Part shown: positions 21,593 to 60,523 of the stretch, piece after piece
How positions within the stretch are numbered: the stretch's first letter is position 1
Layout: the number at the start of each line of letters is the position of its first letter
Virus record (IMG/VR): IMGVR_UViG_3300034069_002177
Location: 64,001 to 128,000 of that record
Reading direction: 5' to 3' (one strand)
From: a virus
Lineage: Duplodnaviria > Caudoviricetes
Length of the DNA: 64,000 bases
Notes under the pieces: generated by a model
Told to the model about the DNA's origin: nothing
Databases searched by the model: none
What the model saw: the letters and a program-made list of their open reading frames with translations, nothing else
Made by a program: the position numbers and the translations under genes

Positions 21593-22201
21593 ATGTCCGA
21601 CCGCTCTCACCTCATTCGTGACACTACCGTCGATGTCAATGGACACCCTAAAACGGTGTATCGCAAACCGGGCGACCCCGCGCCAACGAACAACAGCCGC
21701 TCCGGTGGTATCGGCGCTCCGATTTCTTCACGACTTGTCAAGGTGGTTCCTGACCACTCGCAAGAGTTCCCTATCGCGGCAGATAAGTTCGATTCTCGTT
21801 GGGCTGAAACTAATCGTGTGAAGTACGCTGATGATTACATCAACGAATTCCAAGCGTGGAATGGCTGGAACGATTACAACCCAAACGGCACCCTCAACGC
21901 TCAGTCTGGTGATGATGGCATACTCTACTTCGTGGAGCCTCATACTGGCGATTTGGTTCTCACTGGTACGCCTGGTGAATTTTACATTGCAGCCATTTCA
22001 TCGCCACCAGTTGTCGAGCCCATCGAGTCCGGCTACAAGATCACGTACGTATCAACCGATTATGCAGAGGATGACAACCACCTCACCACCTTCAATATTG
22101 ACGCTAAGGGTGACTACACCGGAGAACCGGGTACGCTCGACACGTTCGGTAGTAACCTTGATGCAGAAAGCGCTCTCGGTGTTCTGCGTGGAGAGAACTA
22201 A
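21593..22201 (+). CDS. hypothetical protein, DKNG-motif family (divergent)
   Basis: RBS AAGGAGA; N-terminal TTVDVNGHPKTVYRK. Confidence 0.8.
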   Translation: MSDRSHLIRDTTVDVNGHPKTVYRKPGDPAPTNNSRSGGIGAPISSRLVKVVPDHSQEFPIAADKFDSRWAETNRVKYADDYINEFQAWNGWNDYNPNGTLNAQSGDDGILYFVEPHTGDLVLTGTPGEFYIAAISSPPVVEPIESGYKITYVSTDYAEDDNHLTTFNIDAKGDYTGEPGTLDTFGSNLDAESALGVLRGEN

Positions 22202-22316
22202 ACACATTTGATTGTGCTGAGAAGGGAAGTCTTTTACGGCTTCCCTTCTTGCATTTAACGGTCTCGTATGACTCGGGATGCTAACCTCTGTGTAGTCAAA
22301 ACGAGAGGCTCCTAGC

Positions 22317-22961
22317 GTGAGTATTGTCCAGAATCCCAAGTCCGATGTCACAGAAGACAACATTCAACTCACGGGTAAGAATGCCCTTTTGGCTTGGAAC
22401 CGTATTTCGACTGTACTTGCCGAGCATGGGGTCGATGATTCCACCGCTATTTCCAAGGCGGTCGCAAGGCGTCTAGTCGAGGACCACATCGTAGAAGGAG
22501 ATTTTTTCACACCCGGCTTGACTCATAACAGCAGCATTCGTGTTCGCAAGCTTGTGGATAATGCAGTTGTTCCTCATTTTGCTCACGTCACCGATGCCGG
22601 TGCTGACCTCATCAGCGTAGAAGATGTCGTGATTCCCGCTGGCGGACACAAGATGGTAGGTACTGGTATCGCTATCGAAATTCCTCTCGGTCGCGTTGGT
22701 CTTGTCCACCCTCGTTCCGGTCTTGCTGCGAAGCATGGCATCACCGTCTTGAACACCCCTGGCACTATTGACTCCGGTTACCGTGGTGAAGTCAAGGTAA
22801 TCCTCTACAACAGCACGAAAGAGGATTACGAAGTTGCTGTAGGTGACCGTATTGCTCAGTTGGTTATCCAAGAGCATGATTACCCGTTGTTCATCGAGGT
22901 CGAAGATCTCGCAACTTCCGACCGTGGTGAAAACGGTATCGGGTCCACAGGAAAGAACTGA
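22317..22961 (+). CDS. dut: trimeric dUTPase with N-terminal extension
   Basis: DAGADL, PRSGLA, GTIDSGYRGEVKV, RIAQLV, RGENGIGSTG. Confidence 0.95.
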   Translation: MSIVQNPKSDVTEDNIQLTGKNALLAWNRISTVLAEHGVDDSTAISKAVARRLVEDHIVEGDFFTPGLTHNSSIRVRKLVDNAVVPHFAHVTDAGADLISVEDVVIPAGGHKMVGTGIAIEIPLGRVGLVHPRSGLAAKHGITVLNTPGTIDSGYRGEVKVILYNSTKEDYEVAVGDRIAQLVIQEHDYPLFIEVEDLATSDRGENGIGSTGKN

Positions 22962-22966
22962 ACCAG

Positions 22967-23440
22967 ATGAAGAAAATCTTTGCCGTATCGGCATTGGTAA
23001 TGACCATTGGGCTGACGCTCGTTGGTTGTACTAACGCGAGCACAAACGGTGGCGGTACAGATGGTGTTCTTGCGCCGACGACCAAAGGTGATGATGTCAC
23101 TATCAGTCAGCTAAGCCAGGCAGAGACCGATAAACTTGTCGATGCTTCTGGTTCGAACTTCAGTGATTTCACGCCGGTTGCAAAGGGCAACAAGGTTACT
23201 TTTATTACGGTCGGTAGCAAGACGTGCAAGGAGACTCCTATTGCTGCCAAGGCAGAGAGCGATGCTACCAAGATCGCATTCAAGGTCTACGACCAGAAGA
23301 CGACCTGTTCCAATGATTTCGGCACTTACGGTTGGACCATCACATTCAAGAACACCACTCCTTTCGCTGGTGCTCCCTTCCTTCGTTGTGAGGGTGACAA
23401 ATGCTATAGCGATACCACAAACGACACCAAGGCTTGGTAA
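22967..23440 (+). CDS. lipoprotein
   Basis: MKK + hydrophobic stretch + lipobox LVGC. Confidence 0.8.
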   Translation: MKKIFAVSALVMTIGLTLVGCTNASTNGGGTDGVLAPTTKGDDVTISQLSQAETDKLVDASGSNFSDFTPVAKGNKVTFITVGSKTCKETPIAAKAESDATKIAFKVYDQKTTCSNDFGTYGWTITFKNTTPFAGAPFLRCEGDKCYSDTTNDTKAW

Positions 23441-23443
23441 CGA

Positions 23444-30098: not shown

Positions 30099-30165
30099 GA
30101 TGGAGATACTACCATCTCGGTGTCGCCGCCTACGGCTATGATGGATACAGCCTTAAGGAGCAAAC

Positions 30166-33582: not shown

Positions 33583-35103
33583 CTACGAAGACTGCTTTGT
33601 GAGACGGGTCTGAGCGAACTCGCGTTTTTCTTCGATGCTTTCCAGATCATCGAACGATTTAAGAACCGCTTGCTTGTCTTCTTGGCTCATTTCGGGAGTG
33701 AGAGACTCTTGGACCATCGACCACACCTTCCATTCAGGGGCTTTACCGGCAGATTCTACGTTCTTAACAGTGGGGCGAATGATAGAGGTCTGCTTGTCAT
33801 CATTGTAGGTACTGTGCTCTTTGATGGTGAGCTTGCTGATGTCGATAACTCCGCCTTCCCACACCTCCGGGGGATTGCTGGCACCCCATTTAATCAGATG
33901 GTTGTCTTCGTCTCGGAAAATCATTGTCGTTTTGTCACCGTAGTCGGTGGGATACGTTGCTCGGAACTCCAAAGTAAGCTTCATAGGCTTGATTATTTTG
34001 TCTCCCGGAGTACCAATCCATTCCTGATTGACTGGCGGCTTGCCTTCCTTGGCAATATCGGATGGCTTGTTGTTCTCGCGGTACCATGCAGAAACTGCGG
34101 AGGCAGCTATACCGACATGGCGTGCCTTTACCAACTCCATGTCCGTGTTGTTACCAGAACCAAAGACTGATTTGAGATTATCGATGTAGTCGCTACCGTT
34201 GTTTGAAGTGCTACGGACGTAAGCGATAACATCATCGACCTTTGCGGCGTCATACTTTTTGTCTTTTTCGCTCAGGGCGAGACTGACCTCATCAGCGGTC
34301 GCTTTGGTTGCCATCGTGCTGTTGGCGCGACTGATGTAATTGGCTCCATCATTGGTGAGGTTTAGAGCGACCCCGACAACATCACGAAGAGAGTAAGAAA
34401 CTCCCGAATTGCTTCCAAGTGAGGAAGATTCTAGGTCCGAAAGACTGTCTTCAATTTTAGTGTCATTGAGAGTCCAGAGACCTTCGGGTCGAACACCCAT
34501 GAACAATTGCAAGCAGTTGGATCCGATTTGCTTGGTATCACCCTCAGGGTTGGTCACGGTGTAGATCCGTTCGCGGCGGCGGTTGGTGTGGCATTGGTCG
34601 CAGTGTGCGTCTTCAGGAACTTCGAAGTCTGCACCCTTGCCGTAGTAGCTGAGCACATCACCAGCAGGAGTGAATTCGTGTGTAGCGGTGAAGGTCCACT
34701 CGCCGTTGGAAATCGTTGGCTTATTGAGAGTGGCTACGATAACCTCTCGCGAGGTACCATCATTCTCATTGTGAATCACTTTGGATTCGAAACCGTACTC
34801 GAATCGATCTTCGACACCAGCACGTTCAAGTCGATTATTTGCCATCTTGATAATGTGCTCGAACTTAGCCGAGTTATCTGCGGTGATCGTGTACTCCTGT
34901 ACAGGAAGACTTGCTCTATCAAGGTTTTCACCATCCGCGTCAAATGTTTGTTCTAGAACAGCTTCGGCAGCGCGGGGAGGGGTGGCGCTTTTGATACGGT
35001 TCTTGATGTCTTTCATGTTTGGCTTATCCGTGCTGCGGTGCACGGTGGTTGCCTTACCGTTTTTGTCAACGATAGGTGTGGGAACACGATTGGCGATAGA
35101 CAT
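33583..35103 (-). CDS. hypothetical protein, DKNG-motif family, with Zn-ribbon and OB-like C-terminus
   Basis: TPIVDKNGKATTVHRS; CDQCHTNRRR...IGSNCL; WIGTPGDK...TDYG. Confidence 0.85.
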   Translation of the reverse strand: MSIANRVPTPIVDKNGKATTVHRSTDKPNMKDIKNRIKSATPPRAAEAVLEQTFDADGENLDRASLPVQEYTITADNSAKFEHIIKMANNRLERAGVEDRFEYGFESKVIHNENDGTSREVIVATLNKPTISNGEWTFTATHEFTPAGDVLSYYGKGADFEVPEDAHCDQCHTNRRRERIYTVTNPEGDTKQIGSNCLQLFMGVRPEGLWTLNDTKIEDSLSDLESSSLGSNSGVSYSLRDVVGVALNLTNDGANYISRANSTMATKATADEVSLALSEKDKKYDAAKVDDVIAYVRSTSNNGSDYIDNLKSVFGSGNNTDMELVKARHVGIAASAVSAWYRENNKPSDIAKEGKPPVNQEWIGTPGDKIIKPMKLTLEFRATYPTDYGDKTTMIFRDEDNHLIKWGASNPPEVWEGGVIDISKLTIKEHSTYNDDKQTSIIRPTVKNVESAGKAPEWKVWSMVQESLTPEMSQEDKQAVLKSFDDLESIEEKREFAQTRLTKQSS

Positions 35104-35151
35104 AAGTGAGTCCTCCTAGGAATACCTCTAGGTTACTCCGTACTAGCGACA

Positions 35152-37697: not shown

Positions 37698-38468
37698 ATG
37701 ACAACGCATTATGACACCCTAGGCGTTAGCCGTATGGCTACCAGCGCCGAGATTCGTAGCGCCTACCGTCACGAAATGCGTCTTCACCACCCCGACATGT
37801 CCAACAGCAATGGTGACCGCGCTGCTCAGATTACTCTTGCCTATGCTGTTCTTTCGGATGCAGCTAAGAAACGTTCTTACGATTACGATTTAGAGCGAAC
37901 ATCCCCCTACGCGCCCACCGTGTCAAATGCCAAGGCACCAGCTAGCCACCAGTACACAAGCGCCTCTACTAGCACAGCTAGTGCACCAAAGCGCACCGAT
38001 CCCGTCACTAATGTCGCGCCGCCGATGGAGTTTCATGATGCTACTCCGCCCAGTAAGCGCAAAAACAACAAGCGGGCTTCATTCTTTACTCGTGCATGGT
38101 CAACTATCGGCGGCAAGATAGCGTTGTCACTGACAATAGCTGGATTTATCACTTGGGTTGCATCTGCAAGTATCAGCCTCAGTTCACTTGCAGGCACTCC
38201 TGTCGGGTTATCTGGTCTCGTCTCCGGCATTCTCATTCTGACCGTACTGGTTTTCATCATCAACCCAGTACGACACCCGTGGCTATCAATAGTGATTTTC
38301 GCTCTTGCGTTGGCTATCCCAATCGATCACATTAACAAAAGTGATGTCCTGCCCAACTTCCTTGAAGGACTCAGTGACAAGACGACAATCGCAATTACCA
38401 TCACATATCTCGCAGCCCTGGGGACCAGGCTGTTCTTCGGACAGACTCGCCAAATCGCCAAGCGATAG
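37698..38468 (+). CDS. DnaJ (J-domain) membrane protein
   Basis: HYDTLGV...IRSAYR....HHPD...AYAVLSD..KKRSYD; C-terminal TM helices. Confidence 0.9.
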   Translation: MTTHYDTLGVSRMATSAEIRSAYRHEMRLHHPDMSNSNGDRAAQITLAYAVLSDAAKKRSYDYDLERTSPYAPTVSNAKAPASHQYTSASTSTASAPKRTDPVTNVAPPMEFHDATPPSKRKNNKRASFFTRAWSTIGGKIALSLTIAGFITWVASASISLSSLAGTPVGLSGLVSGILILTVLVFIINPVRHPWLSIVIFALALAIPIDHINKSDVLPNFLEGLSDKTTIAITITYLAALGTRLFFGQTRQIAKR

Positions 38469-38511
38469 AAGTTACTTGCCCTAGAATGGTCTTCCACAGG
38501 AAGGCTATGGC

Positions 38512-39060
38512 TTGTCAAAATCAAGGCACATAACCATCAACAACGTCTCCTTTGTAGTTGGTAGGACCATCGTCATTGCCTTCTTAGTGGGCGCATTTAC
38601 GTTATTCGCAGCTACATTTTTCGTACCCCGTTTCATTTTTCACGCCCAGAACTATGTTGTCGTATCCGGGTCAATGGTTCCTGAAATCAATATCGGTGAT
38701 ATCGTGATATCGGATACACATTACGATCCAGCGACCATCAAAGATGGCGACGTGGTGACCTATCTGACGAACGACCCCGATAACCCTTATGCTAATTCCA
38801 CTATTGTCCATCGAGTGATTAGCGCCCAGCATAACCAAGACGGAACGAAATACAAGTTCGTCACCAAGGGTGATGCAAACCTATCCTCAGATATACCGAT
38901 TACAGAACTCGATATCACAGGGAAAGTGCTGTACAAAGTTCCGTACATTGGACTCGTGACAAATTCAGCCTACTCCGGTGACATCCTGCTATTCATCGGG
39001 CTACTAATGGTAATGTTCGGGATAAGGCACGCTGAGCAAAGGAAAAGGCGCAAGAAATGA
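38512..39060 (+). CDS. signal peptidase I, SipW/S26B type
   Basis: VVVSGSMVPEINIGD, IVHRVI (Ser/His), TKGDAN, flanking TMs. Confidence 0.9.
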   Translation: MSKSRHITINNVSFVVGRTIVIAFLVGAFTLFAATFFVPRFIFHAQNYVVVSGSMVPEINIGDIVISDTHYDPATIKDGDVVTYLTNDPDNPYANSTIVHRVISAQHNQDGTKYKFVTKGDANLSSDIPITELDITGKVLYKVPYIGLVTNSAYSGDILLFIGLLMVMFGIRHAEQRKRRKK

Positions 39061-39158
39061 GAATGAGCAACAGGAAAAGACGAATCTTGGTAGGTGTCGT
39101 CGCAGCTATTGCAGGTGCCACGATGCTCGCCGGTACTTTGTCAACTTTTGTCCAATAG
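39057..39158 (+). CDS. 33-aa signal-peptide-like ORF
   Basis: ATGA overlap with peptidase stop; MRMSNRKRRILVGVVAAIAGATMLAGTLSTFVQ. Confidence 0.5.
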   Translation: MRMSNRKRRILVGVVAAIAGATMLAGTLSTFVQ

Positions 39159-39210
39159 CGAATCTTTCGCCACAATCGGCTGATAGGCTGCCATCAACAC
39201 AAGGAGAATC

Positions 39211-39720
39211 ATGACCAACGATTGGTATGCACTAGACACTATCTCGGAGACCGGATTTTATGCCGTCGTCGTCACTGCGCCTGAGGCTCTCGTACCCATC
39301 GCTTCCGGTTATGCCAAGACTATCTCGGCGGGGCTGCATAGTAGGTTCTCCGACCGTATTTACCTTGGAGTGAGGCTGGCTCAGGAAGGTAGCGGAGCGG
39401 AGGGCGAGATTACCCCTGCCGAAGCTGATATCGTGACCAACTGGGTTGAAGGTGTCAAGCGACCACGTAGGTCTGGTAACAAGCCTCCCAAAAGCGCCAT
39501 CATCTACGTTGAACGTTTCGACAGACTCCCGGAAGAACTGGTAACTCTACTTACTCAGGAAAGTGGTGGCGATTTGAATGTTATCCTTGTAGGAGCAGTA
39601 GACGTATCCACCCCTCCTAGCCCTGATTCACTTGCTCCTTTTGACGCGGTGCGCATCATCAATATTCCTTCCGAAGATGGCGACATCATTTCCACTGCTG
39701 AGGTTCAGCGAAAGGCTTAA
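39211..39720 (+). CDS. hypothetical protein
   Basis: RBS AAGGAGA; 169 aa. Confidence 0.75.
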   Translation: MTNDWYALDTISETGFYAVVVTAPEALVPIASGYAKTISAGLHSRFSDRIYLGVRLAQEGSGAEGEITPAEADIVTNWVEGVKRPRRSGNKPPKSAIIYVERFDRLPEELVTLLTQESGGDLNVILVGAVDVSTPPSPDSLAPFDAVRIINIPSEDGDIISTAEVQRKA

Positions 39721-39757
39721 TCGCTACATCTAGCAAGAACTAAAGAAGGGCAAGGCG

Positions 39758-40027
39758 TTGAATACAGTCACTGACAGTGCCGCCGATGCCACCGTTTGGT
39801 CGGAGTCGGCAGGAATGATGGTGGACTTAGGTGGTCTACTCATCATTATGCTAGGTATCTATCTGCTAGCCAAGGGCGCGTTTCTCTTTTCCGCCGAGAA
39901 ACGTCATGACAAGAATTTCATTGAAGAATACGGGTCTAAGAAGCGAACACCGTTCTTCTTTTTGACGTTTGGCGTAGCGCTTATCGTGTCAGGAATCATC
40001 GTCGTTTTCGTTCCTTTTACAAGCTAA
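39758..40027 (+). CDS. small membrane protein
   Basis: Two hydrophobic segments. Confidence 0.65.
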   Translation: MNTVTDSAADATVWSESAGMMVDLGGLLIIMLGIYLLAKGAFLFSAEKRHDKNFIEEYGSKKRTPFFFLTFGVALIVSGIIVVFVPFTS

Positions 40028-40177
40028 CCAGCTAACTACCAAACTAGCAGATTGTGACTTTTTAGCAATACATCGCAAACCGTTTACGGTGTCATTTGGT
40101 TGTGACAAGATAGACCTCACAACAAAGCCGAGGGGTAATACCGCTCTCGGCTCCCACGAAAGTTCTAAGGAGAGTTT

Positions 40178-40447
40178 ATGAGTTTGGTACTAGATAAGAT
40201 TGCAGAAGTTAAGGTGATTACTCGTCCGAGTTGCCAGCCTTGTAAAGCGACTATTCGTAAGTTCGGCTCATATGATCTCACCATCATCGACAGCGCAATC
40301 GAACGTGAAGAAGCCCTCGCTCTCGCCGCCGAGGTTGGTTACTTGGCAGCACCTATCGTAGTCGTTTACGCCGAGGATGGAACGATCATTGATCACTGGA
40401 CAGGATTCAACCCTGACCGTATCAATGCCGTTGTCGGTGCTAACTAG
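40178..40447 (+). CDS. nrdH: NrdH-like glutaredoxin
   Basis: CQPC, GYLAAPIVVV, HWTGFNPDRI; RBS AAGGAGA. Confidence 0.9.
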   Translation: MSLVLDKIAEVKVITRPSCQPCKATIRKFGSYDLTIIDSAIEREEALALAAEVGYLAAPIVVVYAEDGTIIDHWTGFNPDRINAVVGAN

Positions 40448-40574
40448 GAGGTGATCCCTGTATCTCGGTTGCGGGTTTAGTAGTACCTGCGATAAACAGG
40501 GAAGCACAGCTAGACCCGCAACTGTCAGGGTTCACCTTCTAGTCCACGATTCACCACTCATATAGGAGTAATAA

Positions 40575-41054: not shown

Positions 41055-41419
41055 TGTCTGCATCAGAGATGCCCTCCCAAAAAGTATCCACTTTATTGCT
41101 CACCAAGGCTCTAAGCTCGGCGTTCCTATTCGTTGGTGTGGGTGCATTCGTACTCGCCTCGATGGCTTCTGCGTTCGTCGCTTCTTCGCTTGGAATTGGC
41201 GCTATAGGAATATTCCTACGCACTTATACGGCAGTGGAAGTATCAGCGGTTCCGCTTTTGCTTATCGTCGCTCTACTTGCAGCAGCCTTGAACACGGGTA
41301 GAAAAGATTCGAAGGGCTTCAAGCAAAATTTTGGGACAATGACCGAATCCACCCTTAGTTCGTTGTTCTGCGCCCCTCTCGTAGCCGCACTTGTAATCTA
41401 TTTGGTACTTAGCCGCTGA
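41051..41419 (+). CDS. membrane protein
   Basis: Three hydrophobic segments. Confidence 0.7.
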   Translation: MMSASEMPSQKVSTLLLTKALSSAFLFVGVGAFVLASMASAFVASSLGIGAIGIFLRTYTAVEVSAVPLLLIVALLAAALNTGRKDSKGFKQNFGTMTESTLSSLFCAPLVAALVIYLVLSR

Positions 41420-41956: not shown

Positions 41957-42034
41957 AACCAGAAATTTCGCATTACGTTCTGAGCGTCGTGAGGTGTGGC
42001 TAGGATTGTCTATAAGCACCGAAAGGCAATCTTG

Positions 42035-47137: not shown

Positions 47138-47641
47138 ATGGATATGAATGCAGTAGCCAAGTTCAACACCAGGGTGTCCATCGAATCGAAGGTGCCCGCT
47201 ACTGCTCTGTTCAGCAAACTCCGAGAAATTCTCAGAATCAACCCTGCACTAGAAGCCGTTACTTACGCGACTGAACTCTATTTCGATCCAGATGATGATT
47301 TCATTGTTCAAGTGAACATGGAATTCGGTGAAGAAGATGGTCGCAAGCCGTTATTCGAAGATGGCGAAGACGAAGACTACGTTGACGAACATACACCCTA
47401 TGCTGAGATTACCCTTTCGACAGATACCGACTACAAAACCAAGTTGGGCGGAGCACCGAAAGACCTTCATTCTCTTGTTTTGTCGGAACTTTCCGAGTGG
47501 CTCGATGATCACAGCATTGAATGGGGATACTATTCCGACGCTGACAAAATGGGTCGCTGGATTTCTGGCGAGTTCCCTGTCAGATTTGGAAATCCAGACA
47601 AGGCTGACCTTGACGAGCTAGCTGTCGGCGGCATCAGTTAG
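47138..47641 (+). CDS. hypothetical acidic protein
   Basis: 167-aa ORF. Confidence 0.75.
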   Translation: MDMNAVAKFNTRVSIESKVPATALFSKLREILRINPALEAVTYATELYFDPDDDFIVQVNMEFGEEDGRKPLFEDGEDEDYVDEHTPYAEITLSTDTDYKTKLGGAPKDLHSLVLSELSEWLDDHSIEWGYYSDADKMGRWISGEFPVRFGNPDKADLDELAVGGIS

Positions 47642-47663
47642 TATTTAGAGTAGGAGGTCGTCA

Positions 47664-50276: not shown

Positions 50277-53210
50277 ATGATGGTATCCACACACGAGAAG
50301 CACGCTCTCCGAGTTGCGCGTAAGGCAGAAGACCTGTCTTACGCCGCGCGTTCGGTTTGGGGTAAGACCCAGCGTGGTAAAGATACGACCTTCTGGATGC
50401 CTCTTTACCGGCACTTGGCTGATACTGCACTCGTATCTGCGCGCCTTTACGATGAATACCTGCCGGATGCCGCCAAGCGAGATATTGCTCTTGCTCTGAA
50501 CAGCGAAGATGATGCGCGGACACTAGCTATTTTCCTTGCTGGAATTCACGACCTCGGTAAGTCATCGCCTGTTTTCCTTGCATCAGAAGATGATTACGTC
50601 AATGAACTCAATGATGCATTCATGGGCAAAAATGGTCTTCACGTGCCACGAGGTCTTGATAGATCTCTAATTCGACATGAAGTAATCTCAGCTATTCTCA
50701 TCAAGCGCTTCCTTCTCGAAGAAGGTGTCTCTGAGGCTGTAGCTGATTCTTGCGCAATCGTAGTCGGTAGTCATCACGGCAACCCCCTCTCTCACGAGCT
50801 TCTTGCGTCTTGTATCGGTCGAGAAGACATCATCGGAACTTCTGACCCAGCCTGGCTCGCCGTTCAGCGCGAAATCTTTGACTATGCCGCTGTCATCTCC
50901 GGGGCTAACAAGAGCTTCATTAATTGGCGAGACATGGAGATGTCACGTTCAGCAGAAACCATTCTTATGGGTTTCGTTGTAGCTGCTGACTGGGGTGCCT
51001 CTCAGGGTTTTGGCTGCAATATGTCTTTGAAATCCAAGACCCTCGACATCGACGTAAAGAAAGACACCAGCCGAGCGGTGGTTGCGCTCAACGCACTGCC
51101 TATTCCATCCAAGTGGACACCCTCTGTACCGCCCAACGCAGGGAGTGAATTCTTCCATACGAGATTTGGCTTCCCACCACGACCTGTACAGAAGGCTGCG
51201 CTTGATGCTGTTCGTCCAATGACAGACAGTGGGCTAATAATCATCGAAGCCCCAATGGGTGAAGGCAAAACGGAAGCCGCGCTCGCTGTTGCTGAGGTAA
51301 TGGCTCAGCAAACTGGTGCGTCAGGAGTATTTGTTGCACTACCCACCATTGCTACCTCAGACGCCATATTCAGCCGCGCCCGAAGCTGGGTTAGCAACCT
51401 TCCCGGAAGCCGCAGTGGCATGTCGATGTATCTTTCGCATTCCCGTTCCGGTCTCAACGGTAACTTCGCTGAACTACTAGATGCGGCTCGTGAAGAAGGC
51501 GTCGATGGTGGACACGTCAATAGGTGGCTGTCACAGGGAACCAAGCTGGGTCCGCTATCGAACTTCGTAGTCGGGACTATCGACCAAGTGCTTGTTTCGG
51601 CATTGGCATCAAGGCATGTCACGTTGCGACATCTAGCGCTCGCCAACAAGGTTGTAATTCTCGATGAGGTGCATGCATATGATGCGTATATGAACGTATT
51701 CCTGGCACGAGCGTTGCAATGGTTGGGTTATTACGGCGTTCCCGTCGTGCTTCTTTCGGCTACTTTGCCGACCGATATCCGCAAGGATCTGGTGGTGGCA
51801 TATAACGACGGCTTGAATTCGCGTCGGACGATGAGTGCACCTGTCAAGGAACTTCCTCTTACTTTGGACATCACTAAGATTGCAAAGTCCAAGCAGTCAC
51901 GTAATGACATTGGCGGTATTGACCTGAAGCCGTTGACAACTATTCGGTACCCTTTGATTTCCGTTCTGGACAAGAAAGGTGTGCATGTTCATCACACCGA
52001 AGGTGCATCGAGCAAGAATCCGCTCGCTCTGAATGTGCTTCCTGGCGGTGGTAACGACGAGACGCTCGCGAAGCGTCTTTCTGACCGACTCATCCACGGC
52101 GGGTGTATCGGAATCTTCCGTAATACGGTCGCTCGTTCTCAGCAGACCTATGACGCCATGAAGGCATACTTTGCGGAGCAAGAAATTCCTGTCGAGGTTC
52201 TTCTACTCCACTCGCGATTCATCGGGCTTGATCGCGCCGTCAAAGAACAGCGGCTCAACAACTATCTCGGCAAGGAATTTGCCAAACGACCTAAGCGGCT
52301 CATTGTAGTCGGAACACAGGTGATGGAACAGTCGCTTGATATCGATTTCGATGAAAGCATTTCGGACATTGCTCCTATTGACTCGCTGTTGCAGCGCGCG
52401 GGACGAACCCATCGCCACAACATCCCCAATCGTCCGCGCGTATTCACGGAACCAAGACTTTACATCGCTGGAGTCTCTAACTGGGATGAAGAAGAAGGTG
52501 GGGTGCCTGGTGTCAACCATGCCGCAGAAGCGATTTATCCACTCAAAACACTGTACCGAGCCGTTCACGCCCTGCGCCCTTACGCCCTAGATGACGAGAA
52601 GCGACTACAACTCCCTCGTGATATTTCTGCCTTGGTACGTCGTGGTTATGGCGACCGTGTTCGTCCGCCTGAAAGCTGGAAGGACGAATGGAAGGTAGCC
52701 GAGAAAGAATGGCGCGATCTCATCAAGGATAAACGGGATAAGGCTGACAGTAACTATCTCCTTCCCGCGCCTGAGACCGACATCCTTGACTGGCAAAGCC
52801 ATATCAGCAAGGGTGTTGGAGATAGCGAATCCAAAGCACTCGCGTCTGTCCGAGACATCGATGATGAGGAAGAGATCATCTTGCTCAAGTCGAATGGAAA
52901 GGGTCAGATCCAAACTCTCGATGGAGAGTTTGCTGGTGCTGGTCTCGCAGTTGATTTCGAGAGTAAACCTAATCACGAAACTGCACTTGCTATTGCGGCA
53001 AGCATGTTGCGTCTCCGGGCAAAAGAATTTGCTGCCCTTGACGCTGAGTCGGTTCTATTCGACACCGATCTGATTGGTGAATGGAAAGCGATTCCGATTC
53101 TACGTCACAAGAAAATTCTGGTGCTGCGAGAGAACATGGTTATCAACGGCAAGGGTTTTGCTGTGCAGTACAGCCATGACCGGGGTTTGGAAATGAAGGT
53201 GGTTAAGTGA
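50277..53210 (+). CDS. cas3: CRISPR-associated helicase/nuclease Cas3
   Basis: HD domain (HLADT, IHDLGK, HEVIS, SHHG, AADW); APMGEGKTE, DEVH, SAT, QRAGR. Confidence 0.96.
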   Translation: MMVSTHEKHALRVARKAEDLSYAARSVWGKTQRGKDTTFWMPLYRHLADTALVSARLYDEYLPDAAKRDIALALNSEDDARTLAIFLAGIHDLGKSSPVFLASEDDYVNELNDAFMGKNGLHVPRGLDRSLIRHEVISAILIKRFLLEEGVSEAVADSCAIVVGSHHGNPLSHELLASCIGREDIIGTSDPAWLAVQREIFDYAAVISGANKSFINWRDMEMSRSAETILMGFVVAADWGASQGFGCNMSLKSKTLDIDVKKDTSRAVVALNALPIPSKWTPSVPPNAGSEFFHTRFGFPPRPVQKAALDAVRPMTDSGLIIIEAPMGEGKTEAALAVAEVMAQQTGASGVFVALPTIATSDAIFSRARSWVSNLPGSRSGMSMYLSHSRSGLNGNFAELLDAAREEGVDGGHVNRWLSQGTKLGPLSNFVVGTIDQVLVSALASRHVTLRHLALANKVVILDEVHAYDAYMNVFLARALQWLGYYGVPVVLLSATLPTDIRKDLVVAYNDGLNSRRTMSAPVKELPLTLDITKIAKSKQSRNDIGGIDLKPLTTIRYPLISVLDKKGVHVHHTEGASSKNPLALNVLPGGGNDETLAKRLSDRLIHGGCIGIFRNTVARSQQTYDAMKAYFAEQEIPVEVLLLHSRFIGLDRAVKEQRLNNYLGKEFAKRPKRLIVVGTQVMEQSLDIDFDESISDIAPIDSLLQRAGRTHRHNIPNRPRVFTEPRLYIAGVSNWDEEEGGVPGVNHAAEAIYPLKTLYRAVHALRPYALDDEKRLQLPRDISALVRRGYGDRVRPPESWKDEWKVAEKEWRDLIKDKRDKADSNYLLPAPETDILDWQSHISKGVGDSESKALASVRDIDDEEEIILLKSNGKGQIQTLDGEFAGAGLAVDFESKPNHETALAIAASMLRLRAKEFAALDAESVLFDTDLIGEWKAIPILRHKKILVLRENMVINGKGFAVQYSHDRGLEMKVVK

Positions 53211-55261
53211 CATCGTTCAACCTTGTTGATGAGCCTTGGATTCCAGTCAATCTGATTAGCGGTGAGGGTGTTGACGTTTCACTAAGAGATCTCTTTGCCC
53301 GCTCTCGTGATATTCGCTCTATCGAGTGTGACAACCCGATGCAGACCGCAGCGGTGGTGAGACTGGTACTTGCTGTAATGTACCGGGCTCTTACGCCTTT
53401 GTTTCTGGCGCAGAAGAATCACGCTAAAAACGCCGATGTCACTCTCTGGAAAATGCTGTGGGACGACGAGACGGGCACACTTGCCAACACAATCGACAGC
53501 TATCTCGAAACATGGAAGAATCGCTTCGATCTATTCGATGCCAAGCGCCCTTTCTACCAAATCGCTGACTTGGAATACAGCAGCGCCGATGAAAGCAATC
53601 GAGGCGAAATCAAGCGCAGCCTTGGAAAGATGATGCCTGACGGTGACATCATCAGCGTTTTCAAGAACAGCGATTTTGCTGCTAAGGTGAGTTATGCAGA
53701 AGCGGCGCGTATTCTCATTGGCTACCATTCGTGGTCAACTCTCGCTCCACTCAGTCCTGTGGTGGGTATTTACCCGGATGACGAGCTAGCTATTTCACGA
53801 CTGTATCCCAAAGGTCATCGCGGTTGGTGTTCTTCAATCGGGATCACCCTCATGGTAGGTCGCAATTTCTATGAGACGGCGATGCTCAACTTCGTCCCCA
53901 GCCAACTCAATTTCAAAGATGTACCTTTCTGGGAAGAGGCTAAGGCTCGAAAAGTGCCGATCCTCTATGAAATGCCAGATGGTCTCGCCAAGCCCATCCT
54001 CAAATCTCGCAATGCCAAACCTGTTGGTCAGGTACAGCTTTTCGTTTGGTTCGCTAAGAGCGTTCGACTAATTCCCGAAAACGGTAAAGTCGTTGCGGCT
54101 ATTTCATCCGAGCACGATTCACTGAGTTCCCGAAGCTCCAATGTACACATGGCTCGACACCATGAAACTCAAACTGCTTGGCGCGAAACGGAGAAAGGTG
54201 AGATGGCGGCGTATCACTTTGTCAGCGACTCGGTTTGGCAGAACATTCCCGCAGTGCTTCCCAAGACTCGTGATGGATTCCTTGCCCCACTCAACGTTAC
54301 ATGGTCGGCAAAGGTCGTCAACTTACTCGGTATTCGGCTACCCGCACGAATTCGCATTATCGGAGCGAGTACCGATGATCGTGCGCAAACATTTCGAGGC
54401 GTTATTGACAAGAGCGTTACCATCTCGTCTTTGTCCAAACTGGATAATCCCGTTGTCACAGCCCGTATTGCAGATACTGCCGAAACGTTGACGAAAATGG
54501 TTAGGACTTACTACTACGGCTTTGCACGCGATGTCCTCTCTACCAAGTACGGGGAGGTGTCCAGCATCCTTTTAGATGCCCTTATGTCGCCAGCTAACGT
54601 TGTCTTGGACAAGTCCTTCGTCTCTTTGTTCCGGCTCGCTACAGACCCGAATGAGCCGAACGTTGATACTGTTATCGATGGCTTGGTCGAACACTTGATC
54701 GAGCTATCTCAGGAAGTAGCCAATGATTCAAACGGAACTGACTTGCTGGGAAAATGGCACCACATCAACGGAGAAAACAAGCTTCTTTCGATTGCTGCCT
54801 CACGCGCAAGATTGTTACGGGGAATTCAGCCCGAACGCAAGAAATCGTTTGGAAAACTGACCGAAGATGCTGGGTTTGTAAGGTGGGCGATCAATAAGAA
54901 CCTCGCCAGCAAAAAGCTGAGCCCCGAAGAGTCCGACTTGGATGAGTTCGTGTTGGGGTTCTGGTCTGGGCGGAAAAATCTACCCAGCGGTGCTCCCGTC
55001 CATATCGTCGAGAAGACTCCTTATGACTCTTTTTCGGTATTGCGCAAGAGTGATGGCGCAGCCTTCGATGAGAGAGTTTCTGACCTTTTCGATGCCAAAG
55101 ATGATGCAACCATCAAGGAGTCCTTACGTCGTCTGGCGGGTGTGGCTAATTCGCAGGGTTATCCGATGGATTTCGGAACTCTCGCGGCTATTGGGAAGTC
55201 GATTCACAATCCCGAACTACGTCTAGAAATCGCGCAAGATATAGCAGACCGCCGTAAGTGA
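53207..55261 (+). CDS. cas8e: type I-E Cas8e (Cse1/CasA) with C-terminal Cas11 (Cse2)-like extension
   Basis: FNLVDEPWIPV...SLRDLF, RFDLFDAKRPFYQ; final ~140 aa ending ERVSDLFDAKDD..IKESLRRLAG....QGYPMDFGTLA; no separate cse2 ORF. Confidence 0.88.
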   Translation: MTSFNLVDEPWIPVNLISGEGVDVSLRDLFARSRDIRSIECDNPMQTAAVVRLVLAVMYRALTPLFLAQKNHAKNADVTLWKMLWDDETGTLANTIDSYLETWKNRFDLFDAKRPFYQIADLEYSSADESNRGEIKRSLGKMMPDGDIISVFKNSDFAAKVSYAEAARILIGYHSWSTLAPLSPVVGIYPDDELAISRLYPKGHRGWCSSIGITLMVGRNFYETAMLNFVPSQLNFKDVPFWEEAKARKVPILYEMPDGLAKPILKSRNAKPVGQVQLFVWFAKSVRLIPENGKVVAAISSEHDSLSSRSSNVHMARHHETQTAWRETEKGEMAAYHFVSDSVWQNIPAVLPKTRDGFLAPLNVTWSAKVVNLLGIRLPARIRIIGASTDDRAQTFRGVIDKSVTISSLSKLDNPVVTARIADTAETLTKMVRTYYYGFARDVLSTKYGEVSSILLDALMSPANVVLDKSFVSLFRLATDPNEPNVDTVIDGLVEHLIELSQEVANDSNGTDLLGKWHHINGENKLLSIAASRARLLRGIQPERKKSFGKLTEDAGFVRWAINKNLASKKLSPEESDLDEFVLGFWSGRKNLPSGAPVHIVEKTPYDSFSVLRKSDGAAFDERVSDLFDAKDDATIKESLRRLAGVANSQGYPMDFGTLAAIGKSIHNPELRLEIAQDIADRRK

Positions 55262-55310
55262 TTTGACACGACGACTACACTCAGATACCCTTCCGTCAGG
55301 AGAACCATCA

Positions 55311-56381
55311 ATGACAACTTTCATCAACATCCACGCCATTCAAAGCCTTCCTCCATCGTCGCTTAACCGTGATGACAGCGGAGTTCCTAAGAAGGCACTG
55401 TTCGGCGGTACAGAACGCGTTCGGGTTTCTTCTCAGTCATGGAAGTTCGCTATTCGAAAGTTCTTTTCTGATAACTACGACTCCAGCTATATTGGGTGTC
55501 GGACGACTCAGCTTCCTGTGGAGTTCGAAAAGGCTCTACGGTCAATCCGACCCGAAGCCGATGATGCACTGGTGAAAAAGCTGACGAAGACAGTTTTGGG
55601 AGTAGCCGAGAAAACCGAAGAAGACGGGGCGGGATTCGAGCCTGGTTCGGTTGCGGGTTCTAAGATGATTGTCTTCTATAGCCCCGCGCAGTTAGAGGCG
55701 CTCGTTACCATCGCCATCGAGGTGGTTGACGGAAAACGAAAAGGTGTCACTGTTTCTGAGATCAAAGAAGCATTGGTTGGCAAGAACACTGTCGATATCG
55801 CCCTGTTTGGGAGAATGATGACGGCTCAGGCGGAACTAAGTGTTGATGCTGCGGCAAATGTTGCTCACGTCATCGGAGTTGATAAATATGAGTCGCAACG
55901 TGACTCCTTTGTGGGTTTAGACGACAACCTCGGTAAGGCAAAAATCCTGGGCTCCATTGACTTCGTATCTTCGGTCGTCTACCGATACGCATGTATCGAT
56001 GCTGATTCACTCACCAAGAACCTTGATGGTGACAAGACGTTCTCGGCGGAGGCGGCTGGTGCATTTATCAATGCATTCATTCGGTCCATGCCATCGGGTA
56101 AGCAGTCTAGCTTCGCGGCTCATACCCTCCCCAGTTTCGTTCTCGTAACACTTTCAGATAATCAGCCACTCTCGCTTGCTAGTGCCTTCACTCGGGTAAT
56201 TAGCGGCGACGACATTGAAAACGACGCTATTGACGCCCTGGTGGAGAATGCGATGATGATCTCCGATAACTATGGGGAACCGATTGCTGCATTCACGTTG
56301 CATGATGGAACGCATGATATTCCTTTTGCGAAGAAGGTTTCGCTGCCCGACCTAGTTGACTCTGTGAAGAAAGCTTACTAA
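55311..56381 (+). CDS. cas7: type I-E Cas7 (CasC/Cse4)
   Basis: INIHAIQSLPPSSLNRDDSGVPK...RVRVSSQSWK, DIALFGRM, DAAANVAH, SSVVYRY, PSGKQSSFAAH. Confidence 0.96.
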   Translation: MTTFINIHAIQSLPPSSLNRDDSGVPKKALFGGTERVRVSSQSWKFAIRKFFSDNYDSSYIGCRTTQLPVEFEKALRSIRPEADDALVKKLTKTVLGVAEKTEEDGAGFEPGSVAGSKMIVFYSPAQLEALVTIAIEVVDGKRKGVTVSEIKEALVGKNTVDIALFGRMMTAQAELSVDAAANVAHVIGVDKYESQRDSFVGLDDNLGKAKILGSIDFVSSVVYRYACIDADSLTKNLDGDKTFSAEAAGAFINAFIRSMPSGKQSSFAAHTLPSFVLVTLSDNQPLSLASAFTRVISGDDIENDAIDALVENAMMISDNYGEPIAAFTLHDGTHDIPFAKKVSLPDLVDSVKKAY

Positions 56382-56384
56382 GTC

Positions 56385-57128
56385 ATGTCATCCGTCGTTC
56401 TTGTCCTTTCTGGTGTACTCCAATCATGGGGTACTACCACTATCGGTCATGCCCGAGCAACAAACAGCTACCCAACCAAGAGCGCCATCGTTGGTCTTGT
56501 TGCAAATGCGCTCGGTAGAGAACGCACTGATACCATTTCGGATTTGGCGAAACTTTCGTTCGGAGTTCGTATCGATATGGCGGGCGTAGTGCAACGTGAT
56601 TATCACACGGTCAGCATTATCACTCAGCCGACTAAAGGTGACAGAGTGAATCGCATCACTGAACGCTATTACTTAGCCGATGCTGTTTTCGTGGTCGTGC
56701 TTAGTGGTACTGATAATGAGCTAATCAAGCAAATCGGAGAAGCATTACAGCGCCCCGCACGACCTTTGTTCCTGGGACGCAAGTCATGCCCTCCTATCAG
56801 ACCAACTTTTCATAGCTACTCAGATCTTGGCGTTCAAGAAACACTGGCTGCTGTTGCTTGGCAGGCTGATATTGCTACGCAGGAATCATTCATCGGTTCT
56901 CATCTCGAATTAGATGTTTACCGAGACCCTACCGATGACATCGAGGGTTTTGACTCTGATGTCATCAATGACCAGCCGAAGAGTTTTGATCCTCATGCTC
57001 GTAGGTATGCATCACGAGGCGTTTACCGCGATGTCGTAAAGATCGAGTTTCCTATTCAGCAGTCAAGAACGACTCCTATTTCTGGTTTCTTTGCGCTGGC
57101 ACAAAAGGTTGCGGAGGCAGCATCATGA
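56385..57128 (+). CDS. cas5: type I-E Cas5 (CasD)
   Basis: LSGVLQSWG...PTKSAIVGLVANALG, RDYHTV, RYYLADAVF, LFLGRKSCPP. Confidence 0.96.
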   Translation: MSSVVLVLSGVLQSWGTTTIGHARATNSYPTKSAIVGLVANALGRERTDTISDLAKLSFGVRIDMAGVVQRDYHTVSIITQPTKGDRVNRITERYYLADAVFVVVLSGTDNELIKQIGEALQRPARPLFLGRKSCPPIRPTFHSYSDLGVQETLAAVAWQADIATQESFIGSHLELDVYRDPTDDIEGFDSDVINDQPKSFDPHARRYASRGVYRDVVKIEFPIQQSRTTPISGFFALAQKVAEAAS

Positions 57129-57760
57129 CGTATCTCACCGTCGTTCCTCTGAATGCTTACAGGGCGTCCACTAAGAAGATGCTGTCTTCTCGTCAAGTTG
57201 CTCACGCAACAGTGATGCAGTCATTCGCGCCCAATCAAAATCTCAATGACGCCGATTCAAGAGTTCTTTGGTCGCTTGATGTTTCGGGTCGAGACGTGCA
57301 ACTGACCATTCTGAGTCCAGAGCGGGCTTCTGTAGAGCACATTGTGGAGACCTGCGGATGGACAGCAGCGGGAGATTCTAGCTTCCAGCAAGTTGAATAC
57401 ACCCCGTTGGTTTCGAGTGTTGCAACAGGAAGTCAGTATTCATTTTCTGTCACAGTCAATCCTGTTATTTCGGTCACAGGAAGTTCCAAACGCATAGCGG
57501 TTTCCGAGAAAGACGTAGCTGCATGGGTTGCTTCTAAATTCGGGCGGGAAGGTATGAGAATTATCACCTCAGAAGTAATCTCGTATCGTATTGAATCCTT
57601 CAAACGAGGAAACGGCAAGGTCACTCTGGCGTTGGCTACCGTCACTGGGACATTCCGGGTTGAGGATGCATCAGCCACGCAAAAAGCTCTCGTTGCTGGG
57701 ATTGGTCGTGCCAAAGGATATGGCTGTGGTCTCATCTCACTCAACGAGCAATTAGTCTGA
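57125..57760 (+). CDS. cas6e: type I-E Cas6e (CasE/Cse3)
   Basis: HATVMQSF, RVLW, VNPV, C-terminal GIGRAKGYGCGLISL. Confidence 0.95.
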   Translation: MTYLTVVPLNAYRASTKKMLSSRQVAHATVMQSFAPNQNLNDADSRVLWSLDVSGRDVQLTILSPERASVEHIVETCGWTAAGDSSFQQVEYTPLVSSVATGSQYSFSVTVNPVISVTGSSKRIAVSEKDVAAWVASKFGREGMRIITSEVISYRIESFKRGNGKVTLALATVTGTFRVEDASATQKALVAGIGRAKGYGCGLISLNEQLV

Positions 57761-57886: not shown

Positions 57887-57920
57887 AGATGTTGTAGTAA
57901 GAACCAGAAAGGACTACAAC

Positions 57921-58325: not shown

Positions 58326-58675
58326 TGTATTCCTGCGAACCAGATGAGGTAAATCCGAGCGTCCAGATGCCGGATATCGCTCATGAGATTCTTCGGCTCC
58401 AAAGCGAGCTTGGGGATCTTTGGCAGGAATACATCGAGGTAGCGGAACTCAGCGGTTTTGTTGACTCAGAAAAGCCTCATGAAGAAAATTTCGCCATCTT
58501 GGAATCGACAATGATGGCTGTGGCAGAACGTGGTCCTTATAGTGCCCTCCGTACGCAATCAGAAGGTGTGAACTGGGCAGATGAAAATGGTCTTCCTCAA
58601 CGAATGCATTACCGGAAAGATGGTGTTGTCGAGTACACTTACGATTCGGGCGAGACCTTTCTTTCAAACGAGTGA
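58322..58675 (+). CDS. hypothetical protein
   Basis: Overlaps upstream stop; 117 aa acidic. Confidence 0.7.
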   Translation: MMYSCEPDEVNPSVQMPDIAHEILRLQSELGDLWQEYIEVAELSGFVDSEKPHEENFAILESTMMAVAERGPYSALRTQSEGVNWADENGLPQRMHYRKDGVVEYTYDSGETFLSNE

Positions 58676-58706
58676 GAGGGTTCGTTGTTTGCGTTACGAT
58701 GAACCA

Positions 58707-59012
58707 ATGAACGTACAGCCGCCAAAACCAGATTTGCTCGTCACCTTCCCTGATGGAGCAATAGCTGGATGGCATGACGGTTATTTCTTCGGTGACGATT
58801 CCAAAGCTGCTATGGCTATTCTGAGATGTGAAGCACTGTTCTTTTTTGAATCGGAGCTTGGGCTGTCTGTAGCCAACCAATACTCTATCGAAGGAGCACT
58901 TGTCGCTCTTATTGGTAGTAAGCCCCGAAGTCAATTCATCATCGTACCGGAACAACCAATCAACAACGTCCCAATGGTTTTAGCAGCCGGAATAGGTGCT
59001 TGGCATGAGTGA
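58707..59012 (+). CDS. hypothetical protein
   Basis: ORF filling the gap; start uncertain. Confidence 0.6.
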   Translation: MNVQPPKPDLLVTFPDGAIAGWHDGYFFGDDSKAAMAILRCEALFFFESELGLSVANQYSIEGALVALIGSKPRSQFIIVPEQPINNVPMVLAAGIGAWHE

Positions 59013-59430
59013 TACTTTTATCACCAAAGAAATCTTGGACAAAAACGGCAACCCTAAAACCATTCAAGTCAAGGTCGCAGGTGATGCGTACCGTCCCAAC
59101 CCTAGTTGGCGCGGCATCGAGTACGGCTGGACAATTGATGACGTAGCACCTGAGTCCATTGATGGGAATTGGCGTCAGGACATTGCTGACTGGGTGGTAT
59201 CACACGGTGGCGTTGTGGTTGCTAGACGAGTTGATATCGACAACGAAGAAGTTCCTTTGGTTTATACAGCAAACCACAGCCTGTTATTCGTTGTATTTGA
59301 CAAAGAACCCGAGCCAAAACATTGGCAGCAATGGAGTCAAGACTCTGGCATTGATAAAGAGCAAGTGCTGCTTCACAGAGTCATTCACGACGGCAATTCG
59401 GTTCGCCATAAGTTTTCGTTGATGTCGTAA
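59005..59430 (+). CDS. hypothetical protein, DKNG-motif family
   Basis: EILDKNGNPKTIQVK. Confidence 0.75.
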   Translation: MSDTFITKEILDKNGNPKTIQVKVAGDAYRPNPSWRGIEYGWTIDDVAPESIDGNWRQDIADWVVSHGGVVVARRVDIDNEEVPLVYTANHSLLFVVFDKEPEPKHWQQWSQDSGIDKEQVLLHRVIHDGNSVRHKFSLMS

Positions 59431-59479
59431 CCAGTTGCTAAGATGAGTACATCAGCAATCATCTCTCAAAGGACATGAC

Positions 59480-60523
59480 GTGAGTGAACTCATCGCAACA
59501 CCAGTCACAGACAAGAACGGCAAGCAGACCACCGTTCATAAAAAGCCCGTTACTTCGGGTACCGGTGCCAAGCGTGCATCGAAGGTAGCTCCTAAGAGCG
59601 CCGCCGTCAAAAAGACCTACGAGAAAAAGGGTCCAACTCTTACGGAAAAGCTGGAAGGCTACAAGGAGGAACTCAAGAGCCGCGTTACGGCACTTGCTGA
59701 TGACGCCAATTGGAATCATTACCTCACTTCGATGAGTAAGTTCCATAACTACTCATGGAACAATCAGATCCTCATTGATATCCAAACCAAAGGGCAGGCA
59801 ACTCATGTTGCAGGCTACAAGACATGGCAGTCCTTGGGTCGCACGGTTAATGGCGGCGAGAAGGCTATCGCTATCATTGGATTTCGAAAGATCAAAGTAG
59901 ATGCTACCGACCGTAATGGCAACAAGATTATGGGAGCGGATGGCAAGCCCGAGAAAAAGGAGATTCCCAACTTCTTCGGCACAGGTGTTTTCGACATTGC
60001 ACAGACTTCCGGTGACGCACTACCCGAGGCACACGCCAAGATGACAGCAGAACCCCCTGTTGGTCTCACTAACGACCTTGAAGCAACCATTAAGGCAAAA
60101 GGCTTCTCAGTTGAATACGTAGACAACTTACGTGGAGCTAAGGGCAGCACTTCCACCGATCCGAATCGCAAGGTTGTGCAGATTCTCAGCAGCTTGAACG
60201 ATGGCGAACGAGCCAAGACTCTTGCACACGAACTGTTCCATATCGCCTCTGGTCACATCGAACGTGCCGATGAGTACCACACCGGTCATGGTGGGCAACG
60301 TAACGCTATGGAAGTGGAAGCGGAGTCCGGTGCATACGTTCTTCTGCGTGCTAACGGTATGGACGAGCATGCAGATACCTCAGCGACCTATGTTGCCGGA
60401 TGGGCTGGCGTTCGTGGCGGTAACGACCGTGAGAAAATGGTTGCTAATGCCGCAGAAAATGTTGCCAAAACAACTCGTTCACTTCTTACCGATTTCGAGT
60501 GGCAAAACTCCGACTTAGTGTAG
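59480..60523 (+). CDS. ardC: ArdC-like ssDNA-binding plus zincin metallopeptidase protein with DKNG N-terminus
   Basis: FHNYSWNNQILI..Q...ATHVAGYKTWQSLGRTVNGGEKAI; TLAHELFH; EVEAESGAY. Confidence 0.8.
   Translation: MSELIATPVTDKNGKQTTVHKKPVTSGTGAKRASKVAPKSAAVKKTYEKKGPTLTEKLEGYKEELKSRVTALADDANWNHYLTSMSKFHNYSWNNQILIDIQTKGQATHVAGYKTWQSLGRTVNGGEKAIAIIGFRKIKVDATDRNGNKIMGADGKPEKKEIPNFFGTGVFDIAQTSGDALPEAHAKMTAEPPVGLTNDLEATIKAKGFSVEYVDNLRGAKGSTSTDPNRKVVQILSSLNDGERAKTLAHELFHIASGHIERADEYHTGHGGQRNAMEVEAESGAYVLLRANGMDEHADTSATYVAGWAGVRGGNDREKMVANAAENVAKTTRSLLTDFEWQNSDLV

Follow-up and report, generated by a model that had tools for sequence, protein, structure and literature searches.

Unrelated, effector-like proteins of a giant mobile element share a new N-terminal hairpin tag and a PafBC-type promoter

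The stretch analyzed here, referred to as the window, comprises 64,000 nucleotides (nt) (bases 64001-128000) of the 202,737-bp IMG/VR record IMGVR_UViG_3300034069_002177, which is classed as a provirus and was cut from a 654,127-bp contig of a plant metagenome. Element-level scans cover the 202.7-kb record, the other ~450 kb of the contig lying outside them. Within the window, eight open reading frames (ORFs) begin with a common peptide, here called the tag, followed by differing C-terminal parts, here called the cargo. As judged from promoter sequence, the tagged genes of the record would form one co-switched set of effector-like proteins, and they are the nearly sole bearers of a promoter of the actinobacterial PafBC/RecA-NDp type.

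That these eight ORFs share an N-terminal motif had been proposed in an earlier reading of the sequence alone (the original prediction), and the claim holds. Six-frame translation of the window yields nine occurrences of D[KR]NG, seven of which fall in the ORFs starting at 29095, 30166, 35103 (minus strand), 42035, 47664, 59005 and 59480. The eighth ORF, at 21593, shows the variant T-V-D-V-N-G-H-P-K-T-V-Y-R-K, and the one at 59005 is also a variant (I-L-D-K-N-G-N-P-K-T-I-Q-V-K). The motif starts 7-11 residues past the start codon in all eight, and 8-10 residues past it in the seven with D[KR]NG. A hidden Markov model (HMM) built from 16 copies was run against the six-frame translation of the whole record and found 19 copies, 16 strong and three weaker ones located outside the window, all 19 of them N-terminal. 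Each copy scores with an E value of 1e-10 to 1e-17, which excludes chance. Five further loci (~94 kb altogether, lying elsewhere on the same element or on relatives) hold ~24 tagged ORFs, with a maximum of nine per 20 kb and five in tandem; given this density, the 654-kb contig probably carries at least 30 copies.

Upstream of the tagged genes the string TGTCG-N11-TAnnAT was first seen, whose geometry is identical to that of the PafBC/RecA-NDp consensus, a 22-nt motif of the form tGTCgg(N10)tA(N3)T in which the -26 element is read by PafB and a normal -10 is present, with no -35 (PMC8635444). The tagged genes and their boxes are distributed along the window as follows. P0001 (21593..22201, plus strand, 202 amino acids (aa)) carries the variant tag TVDVNGHPKTVYRK and is preceded, 20 nt before its start, by the box TGTCGG-N10-TAGACT (21551..21572, plus strand). 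P0002 (29095..29568, plus strand, 157 aa) has a canonical tag and no strict box upstream. P0003 (30166..31251, plus strand, 361 aa) follows the box TGTCGC-N10-TATGAT (30121..30142, plus strand) by 23 nt, and its cargo belongs to phrog_15500/phrog_2433, a family common in cultured actinophages, where it occurs without the tag. P0004, on the minus strand (33583..35103, 506 aa, cargo phrog_2319), has the box TGTCGC-N10-TAACCT (35130..35151, minus strand) 26 nt before its start. Ahead of P0005 (42035..42493, plus strand, 152 aa), at a distance of 28 nt, lies a variant box with CGTCG in which the GTC triplet is kept (41985..42006, plus strand); its orthologue in a 536-kb relative is also tagged (L040:4246). 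P0006 (47664..48578, plus strand, 304 aa) starts 19 nt after the box TGTCGG-N10-TAGTAT (47623..47644, plus strand), a box found as well ahead of its orthologue P0032 in the same relative. P0007 (59005..59430, plus strand, 141 aa) bears the variant tag ILDKNGNPKTIQVK, and P0008 (59480..60523, plus strand, 347 aa) has the box TGTCGT-N10-TAAGAT (59423..59444, plus strand) 35 nt before its GTG start. The cargo of P0001, P0002, P0005, P0006 and P0007 matches no family. Start codons of tagged genes are preceded either by a Shine-Dalgarno-like AGGAG or directly by the -10 box.

Concerning the neighbourhood, P0006 lies just upstream of Cas3-Cascade genes, likewise in the 536-kb relative. Five co-directional ORFs of the window (50277-57760; 977, 684, 372, 247 and 211 aa) correspond in size and arrangement to the Cas3, Cse1, Cas7, Cas5 and Cas6 of L040, which are annotated there by Pfam.

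The last of the eight, P0008, shows behind tag and linker an ArdC-N single-stranded DNA (ssDNA)-binding domain (PF08401, E 2.6e-10, 41 bits against a cut-off of 22.6), followed by a predicted zincin metallopeptidase with the HExxH motif in the form HELFH; MPTase-PolyVal scores 23.6 bits, under its cut-off of 27.5. The protein falls in phrog_7245, 'anti-restriction protein' (E 1.4e-18), and by sequence it has the domain order of ArdC. One ArdC-like cargo had indeed been announced, along with a low-complexity linker leading to differing C-terminal domains, and both statements are borne out: among the eight a Pfam domain is found only in P0008, and P0003 and P0004 belong to distinct PHROG families.

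When 220 tagged proteins are anchored on the motif, a tag of ~45 residues emerges with four parts: a 22-residue N-terminal beta-hairpin, a ~9-residue spacer, the second motif R..[AV][AV][AP]P and a disordered linker rich in Ala, Pro and Ser. The consensus reads M-S-N-L-x-P-T-P-I-V-D-K-N-G-K-x-T-T-V-H-K-K, then ~9 variable residues, an Arg, [AV][AV][AP]P and the Ala/Pro/Ser-rich linker. Two of its conserved parts were absent from the original prediction, namely (M)SNLxPTP before the hairpin and R-x-x-x-[VA]-[AG]-[AP]-P ~9 residues past it. The D of DKNG sits at residue 10-13 in 198 of the 220 proteins, and D, N and G are invariant among 148 diverse proteins. Two lysines of the hairpin, K12 and K21, are strictly Lys (97% K and 0% R at one site, 90% K and 3% R at the other), whereas the basic position beside them accepts Arg freely. 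AlphaFold2, given an alignment of 149 sequences, predicts a two-stranded hairpin with strands at 4-10 and 16-22 (pLDDT, the per-residue model confidence, 85-93), followed by coil. In this model the prolines found at every other position along strand 1 would block its outer edge, leaving the T-T-V-H-K strand free for pairing with a partner.

Synonymous sites of the tag vary: 52% of codon pairs for an identical residue differ, and over the core nucleotide identity is 66% as against 70% amino-acid identity. Because codons vary freely, it is the peptide that selection acts on, neither DNA nor mRNA, and recent duplication does not account for the copies.

The original prediction had also proposed that such a profile be used to scan the genome and its relatives. 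Beyond the copies found in the record, the profile of 16 copies (47 positions), searched against 1.84 billion representative proteins at E<=1e-3, matches 658 protein clusters. Among the best 150 of these, 148 are matched within residues 1-48; the other two, P0124 and P0222, have extra internal hairpins, and P0124 has an N-terminal hairpin too. An internal repeated hairpin, consisting of motif 1 only, is seen in a few long Lys/Glu-rich proteins, i.e. P0124 (770 aa), P0222 (990 aa) and L038:4327-7410(-), none of which contains a Pfam domain; one internal-hairpin protein lies on a 70-kb IMG/VR contig, adjoining a 5-hmdU DNA kinase gene. The hairpin may be one of a broader group of basic hairpins that occur in proteins of mobile elements.

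BLAST comparison of the post-tag parts divides 220 tagged proteins into at least 105 cargo groups. Their median length is 236 aa, and most carry a single cargo domain. Pfam recognises GmrSD_N, SprT-like, Tox-PLDMTX (a papain-like toxin), NUDIX, ArdC-N with MPTase, LRV, Arr-ms ADP-ribosyltransferase, ArdA and DUF2510 among the cargos, and LPD29 in locus L015. Large enzymes can be cargo as well: in a distant relative, an 869-aa ResIII/SNF2-type helicase (L050:979-3588) has the tag ~13 residues from its start. The idea of a portable beta-hairpin tag is sustained by the predicted hairpin and by at least 105 unrelated cargo families, and so is that of anti-defence cargo, the recognisable domains being anti-restriction or effector-like (ArdA, ArdC-N with MPTase, SprT, Arr, Tox-PLDMTX, NUDIX, GmrSD_N, LPD29). 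These domains are the vocabulary of the 'polyvalent proteins', proposed to accompany the DNA of phages and conjugative elements into the new host (PMC5512222).

The tag is new and is found in no library. Pfam, NCBIfam and PHROGs contain no model of it, a sequence-profile search of the PDB at E values up to 10 gave nothing usable, and neither did the ESM Atlas. A strict DNA-level pattern, VDKNGKxTTV, returned only internal chance matches, with no true N-terminal tag in the 185,579 species genomes of GTDB or elsewhere in IMG/VR; no cellular protein is among the matches of the profile, and a literature search on the core DKNGK found nothing relevant. Known elements were compared by eye and set aside: an EF-hand loop (DKDGDG...E), of which the sixth-position Gly and twelfth-position Glu are absent; the N-terminal strand of Lsr2, whose turn length differs; and a clamp-binding motif, an AT-hook and a double-glycine leader, with no match.

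Turning to the promoter, boxes were searched as GTC[GA]-N11-TAnnnT within 70 bp upstream of ORFs. Their total number in the record is not enriched (49, as against 46 in shuffled sequence); it is their placement that is special. A box stands ahead of 13 of the 19 tagged ORFs and of 3 of 210 untagged ones (Fisher p=2.6e-14), and in seven further loci of 12 of 25 tagged versus 2 of 180 untagged (p=5e-11). Where a tagged gene lacks a box, the gene ahead of it is often both tagged and boxed (L016, L015); at L016:6658-10738 five tagged genes stand in a row with one box before the first. Judged by sequence, the boxes qualify as PafBC promoters: their GTC core falls at -23 to -28, the -10 is canonical, and a -35 is lacking. 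In several tagged genes (G000:C1:63242-63270 and 8389; L043:10001; L045:10001, 12560 and 20199) just 6 nt separate the end of the -10 box from the start codon. Leaderless mRNAs are implied for these genes, a trait in keeping with an actinobacterial host.

The three boxed genes without a tag encode a 926-aa protein of a pilus cluster, the first product of the VirB4 cluster described below, and a 381-aa protein (G000:C1:187793-188980, L013) between a DinG-like helicase and an SbcC-like ATPase, whose box is perfect (TGTCGG-N10-TATGAT). The element's own repair genes may be in the regulon too. No WYL-domain gene occurs in the record, so that the activator is implied to be the host's. In mycobacteria the PafBC promoter fires when ssDNA binds to PafBC. 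Compared with the known PafBC/RecA-NDp regulon (PMC8635444, PMC11804915), the 22-nt bipartite promoter is the same, its GTC core lying at about -26 and its -10 box at identical spacing. The known members are chromosomal DNA-repair genes, whereas the present boxes lie on a mobile element and serve almost only tagged, effector-like genes. No literature linking PafBC boxes to mobile-element effectors was found, and the near one-to-one coupling of the tag with a host DNA-damage promoter on a mobile element is new.

As to the kind of element involved, a 920-aa AAA_10 protein is encoded outside the window (G000:C1:146395-149157, L011:2395-5157; Pfam AAA_10 E 1.6e-12). Its AlphaFold2 model (predicted TM-score (pTM) 0.73) matches full-length TrwK/VirB4 of R388 (8rtd, 7o43) over ~900 columns, with a Foldseek E of 3.5e-22 and TM-scores of 0.51/0.56, and also the VirB4 C-terminal domain (4ag5/4ag6). 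By this modelled fold the element encodes the signature ATPase of a type IV secretion system (T4SS). It is surrounded by a bitopic 437-aa protein, a 208-aa protein with two and a 1297-aa protein with 12 transmembrane segments, and a 921-aa, T4CP-like ATPase with transmembrane segments and a Walker A motif that co-occurs with VirB4 on the same contigs; the last three of these neighbours are syntenic in the distant relatives L049 and L050. In L049 five tagged genes lie directly upstream of VirB4 (L049:1135-7969), co-oriented and with gaps of 0-112 nt. The tagged proteins of L049 have 300-410 aa, several of them with a degenerate hairpin, R-A-D-K-T-G-K-L-V-T-R-H-V. Some distant VirB4 homologues (P0246) carry intein-type Hom_end/LAGLIDADG domains.

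The record also encodes an FtsK-like 1030-aa membrane ATPase and a replisome and repair set (Pol III alpha, DnaX, DnaB, gyrase, NAD ligase, ribonucleotide reductase and SbcC). PilB/GspE-like, PilT-like and PilC/GspF-like genes, each with an extension of 200-265 residues, are located at G000:C1:24574-29879 (L007:6574-11879). Behind them come small ORFs and several large ORFs without a family, among them the boxed one for the 926-aa protein (38307-41087), which has an N-terminal hydrophobic segment. A type IV pilus is unlikely as exporter of the tagged proteins, which have no signal peptide. From these data, i.e. from 202.7 of 654 kb, the system is read as a conjugative T4SS on a giant plasmid-like element. 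The tag-bearing elements are regarded as a clade of giant (0.2-0.8 Mb) T4SS-encoding mobile elements of Actinobacteria.

What the tag does can be approached at several levels. It is probably an address or handling label, and docking to a shared partner is the most likely general reading. A more specific reading, plausible though tentative and short of likely, is that the tag is a recruitment signal for protein delivery via the T4SS of the element. The appearance of ssDNA, whether from DNA damage in the donor or from the processing of DNA for conjugation, would set off synthesis of the whole tagged set in a single burst. One receptor of the VirB4-type transfer machine would recognise the hairpin and so recruit many small proteins, and these would enter the recipient with the DNA or ahead of it and disarm its defences, each effector bearing a 'header' of its own in place of fusion into one polyvalent protein. 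Delivery is suggested by the types of cargo, by the precedent of the F 'conjutome', by the co-boxed VirB4 cluster and the tagged genes running into VirB4 in L049, and by the occurrence of the same cargo without a tag in true phages. The full chain, in which the ssDNA sensor PafBC fires dozens of individually promoted effector genes in one burst and the novel hairpin sorts their products into T4SS delivery, is to be regarded with somewhat greater reserve, as a possibility.

Conjugative T4SSs are known to carry many plasmid proteins into recipients (PMC8406263, PMC11288057), and the present element resembles the 'conjutome' of pED208 and F in that a conjugation machine would move many element-encoded helpers, here with a VirB4 T4SS and anti-restriction cargo. 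Known substrates, on the other hand, carry their signals at the C-terminus or internally, with little definition by sequence (PMC11288057), and these signals are charged or hydrophobic. The tag stands at the N-terminus in 148 of the best 150 clusters, is sharply conserved, and is placed as a hairpin on hundreds of families whose translocation is putative. This is the first of several points that weigh against delivery, since no conjugative T4SS is known to use a sharply conserved N-terminal hairpin. No receptor for the tag was identified, and no relaxase or oriT was found on the element. Capsid genes may lie on the contig outside the 202 of 654 kb that make up the record. The PafBC promoter fits expression in the recipient just after entry equally well, with no delivery tag needed. 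The strict Lys, not Arg, at two hairpin sites hints at lysine chemistry, e.g. a modification, over plain docking. With tags on up to a third of the genes locally, the secreted repertoire would be very large, and in a few proteins (P0124, P0222) the hairpin is internal.

A different use of the tag would be as a shared degron or timer. The ssDNA-induced set would then be short-lived, the Lys-rich hairpin and the disordered linker behind it serving as a handle for the Pup-proteasome or an AAA+ protease, and potentially toxic establishment or anti-defence proteins would vanish once PafBC switches off. The near coincidence of tag and PafBC promoter agrees with this, as does the clearance of the PafBC regulon by the Pup-proteasome system in mycobacteria. 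K12 and K21 are strictly lysine and not exchanged for Arg, as expected of a modification site, and a cargo of nucleases, peptidases, ADP-ribosyltransferases and a toxin domain is one whose activity should be brief. A two-part motif of 45 residues is, however, elaborate for such a purpose; members of the host regulon lack the tag, as seen from the absence of cellular proteins among the profile matches and of any true N-terminal copy in the GTDB species genomes; and a Pup system or proteasome in the host has to be presumed. We know of no sequence motif for pupylation. On balance a degron is unlikely; if it were one, it would be the first portable pupylation or proteolysis tag.

The same promoter evidence can be turned towards localisation within the cell that makes the proteins, where the hairpin would tether them to ssDNA, to nucleoprotein (the incoming strand, SSB, RecA filaments) or to the site of DNA entry or exit, and effectors would concentrate where the DNA of the element is vulnerable. 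Expression is tied to an ssDNA sensor and the hairpin is basic; ArdC-N, the proposed DNA-riding 'header', is itself a nested beta-hairpin ssDNA binder (PMC5512222); and the internal repeats in P0124 resemble a binding module that has no need of a free N-terminus. Against this, lysines that cannot be swapped for Arg at two sites are unusual for simple nucleic-acid binding, P0008 carries the tag although it already has an ssDNA-binding ArdC-N, and DNA binding does not need a fixed distance from the N-terminus. Tethering is doubtful, a little more so than a degron.

Far less probable is a role of the tag in filling a phage head with proteins to be injected. This was the part of the original prediction that found no support: the portable module and the anti-restriction or effector-like cargo were upheld, the T4-style capsid targeting was not. 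In T4 the capsid targeting sequence is a helix of ~10-20 residues that is cut off by the prohead protease inside the capsid. The likeness to the internal proteins IPI-III and Alt consists in a short N-terminal peptide common to unrelated cargo that is partly anti-defence, and one may add that IMG/VR classes the 202.7-kb stretch as a provirus and that some cargo families are phage families. The record, however, gives no match to Terminase_6N (PF03237), TerL_ATPase (PF03354), Phage_portal (PF04860) or HK97 Phage_capsid (PF05065), and the ten large ORFs of its 24-54-kb region, the supposed structural region, have no structural PHROG family. A full-length VirB4 fold is present instead, the phage homologues of the cargo go without the tag, and where T4 has an amphipathic helix AlphaFold2 gives a 22-residue hairpin, accompanied by a second motif.

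There is next to no likelihood that the tag has no protein function and is an expression cassette (a promoter with first codons for leaderless or short-leader mRNAs) or a trace of recent duplication: promoter and tag do travel together and several boxes end 6 nt before the start codon, but the codon analysis largely refutes an mRNA-level or duplication origin, D, N and G are invariant, and a hairpin is predicted with confidence. The probability left by all these readings belongs to something else.

It should be noted that the idea closest to the tag conceptually is the ArdC-N 'header' of the polyvalent proteins, which are thought to enter a new host with the DNA and whose N-terminal module was proposed to couple cargo to the delivery apparatus (PMC5512222). 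The vocabulary is common to both (ArdC-N, MPTase, ArdA, ADP-ribosyltransferase, papain-like peptidase, LPD29). The architecture is not: polyvalent proteins string 2-15 effector domains in one polypeptide behind a single header, whereas here each small effector, mostly with one cargo domain, has its own tag, the tag is not ArdC-N, and even the ArdC protein P0008 bears it. Outside conjugation, one conserved N-terminal element with many swappable C-terminal effectors is also the arrangement of the MIX and RIX markers of type VI secretion, of LXG in type VII secretion and of the N-terminal packaging signal of Photorhabdus virulence cassettes and other extracellular contractile injection systems. 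These markers are not known to be related to the tag in sequence or fold, and among the ORFs scanned there were no type VI, type VII or contractile-sheath genes. In its logic the tag is like the shared N-terminal markers of other delivery systems, yet it satisfies the definition of none of them.

If delivery is confirmed, a conjugation system would for the first time be seen to use a sharply defined N-terminal secretion tag, one carried by more than 650 effector families, and the tag would be a portable handle for protein transfer between Gram-positive cells. As a search key it is of use already, since one 47-position profile leads to 658 clusters of mostly uncharacterised small proteins alongside ArdA and ArdC, a stock of candidates for anti-defence and host takeover in giant, uncultured elements. 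From the coupling to the PafBC promoter one obtains the host phylum and the trigger, ssDNA, both testable in model actinobacteria. Either way, a mobile element would be borrowing the DNA-damage activator of its host to time its accessory proteome.

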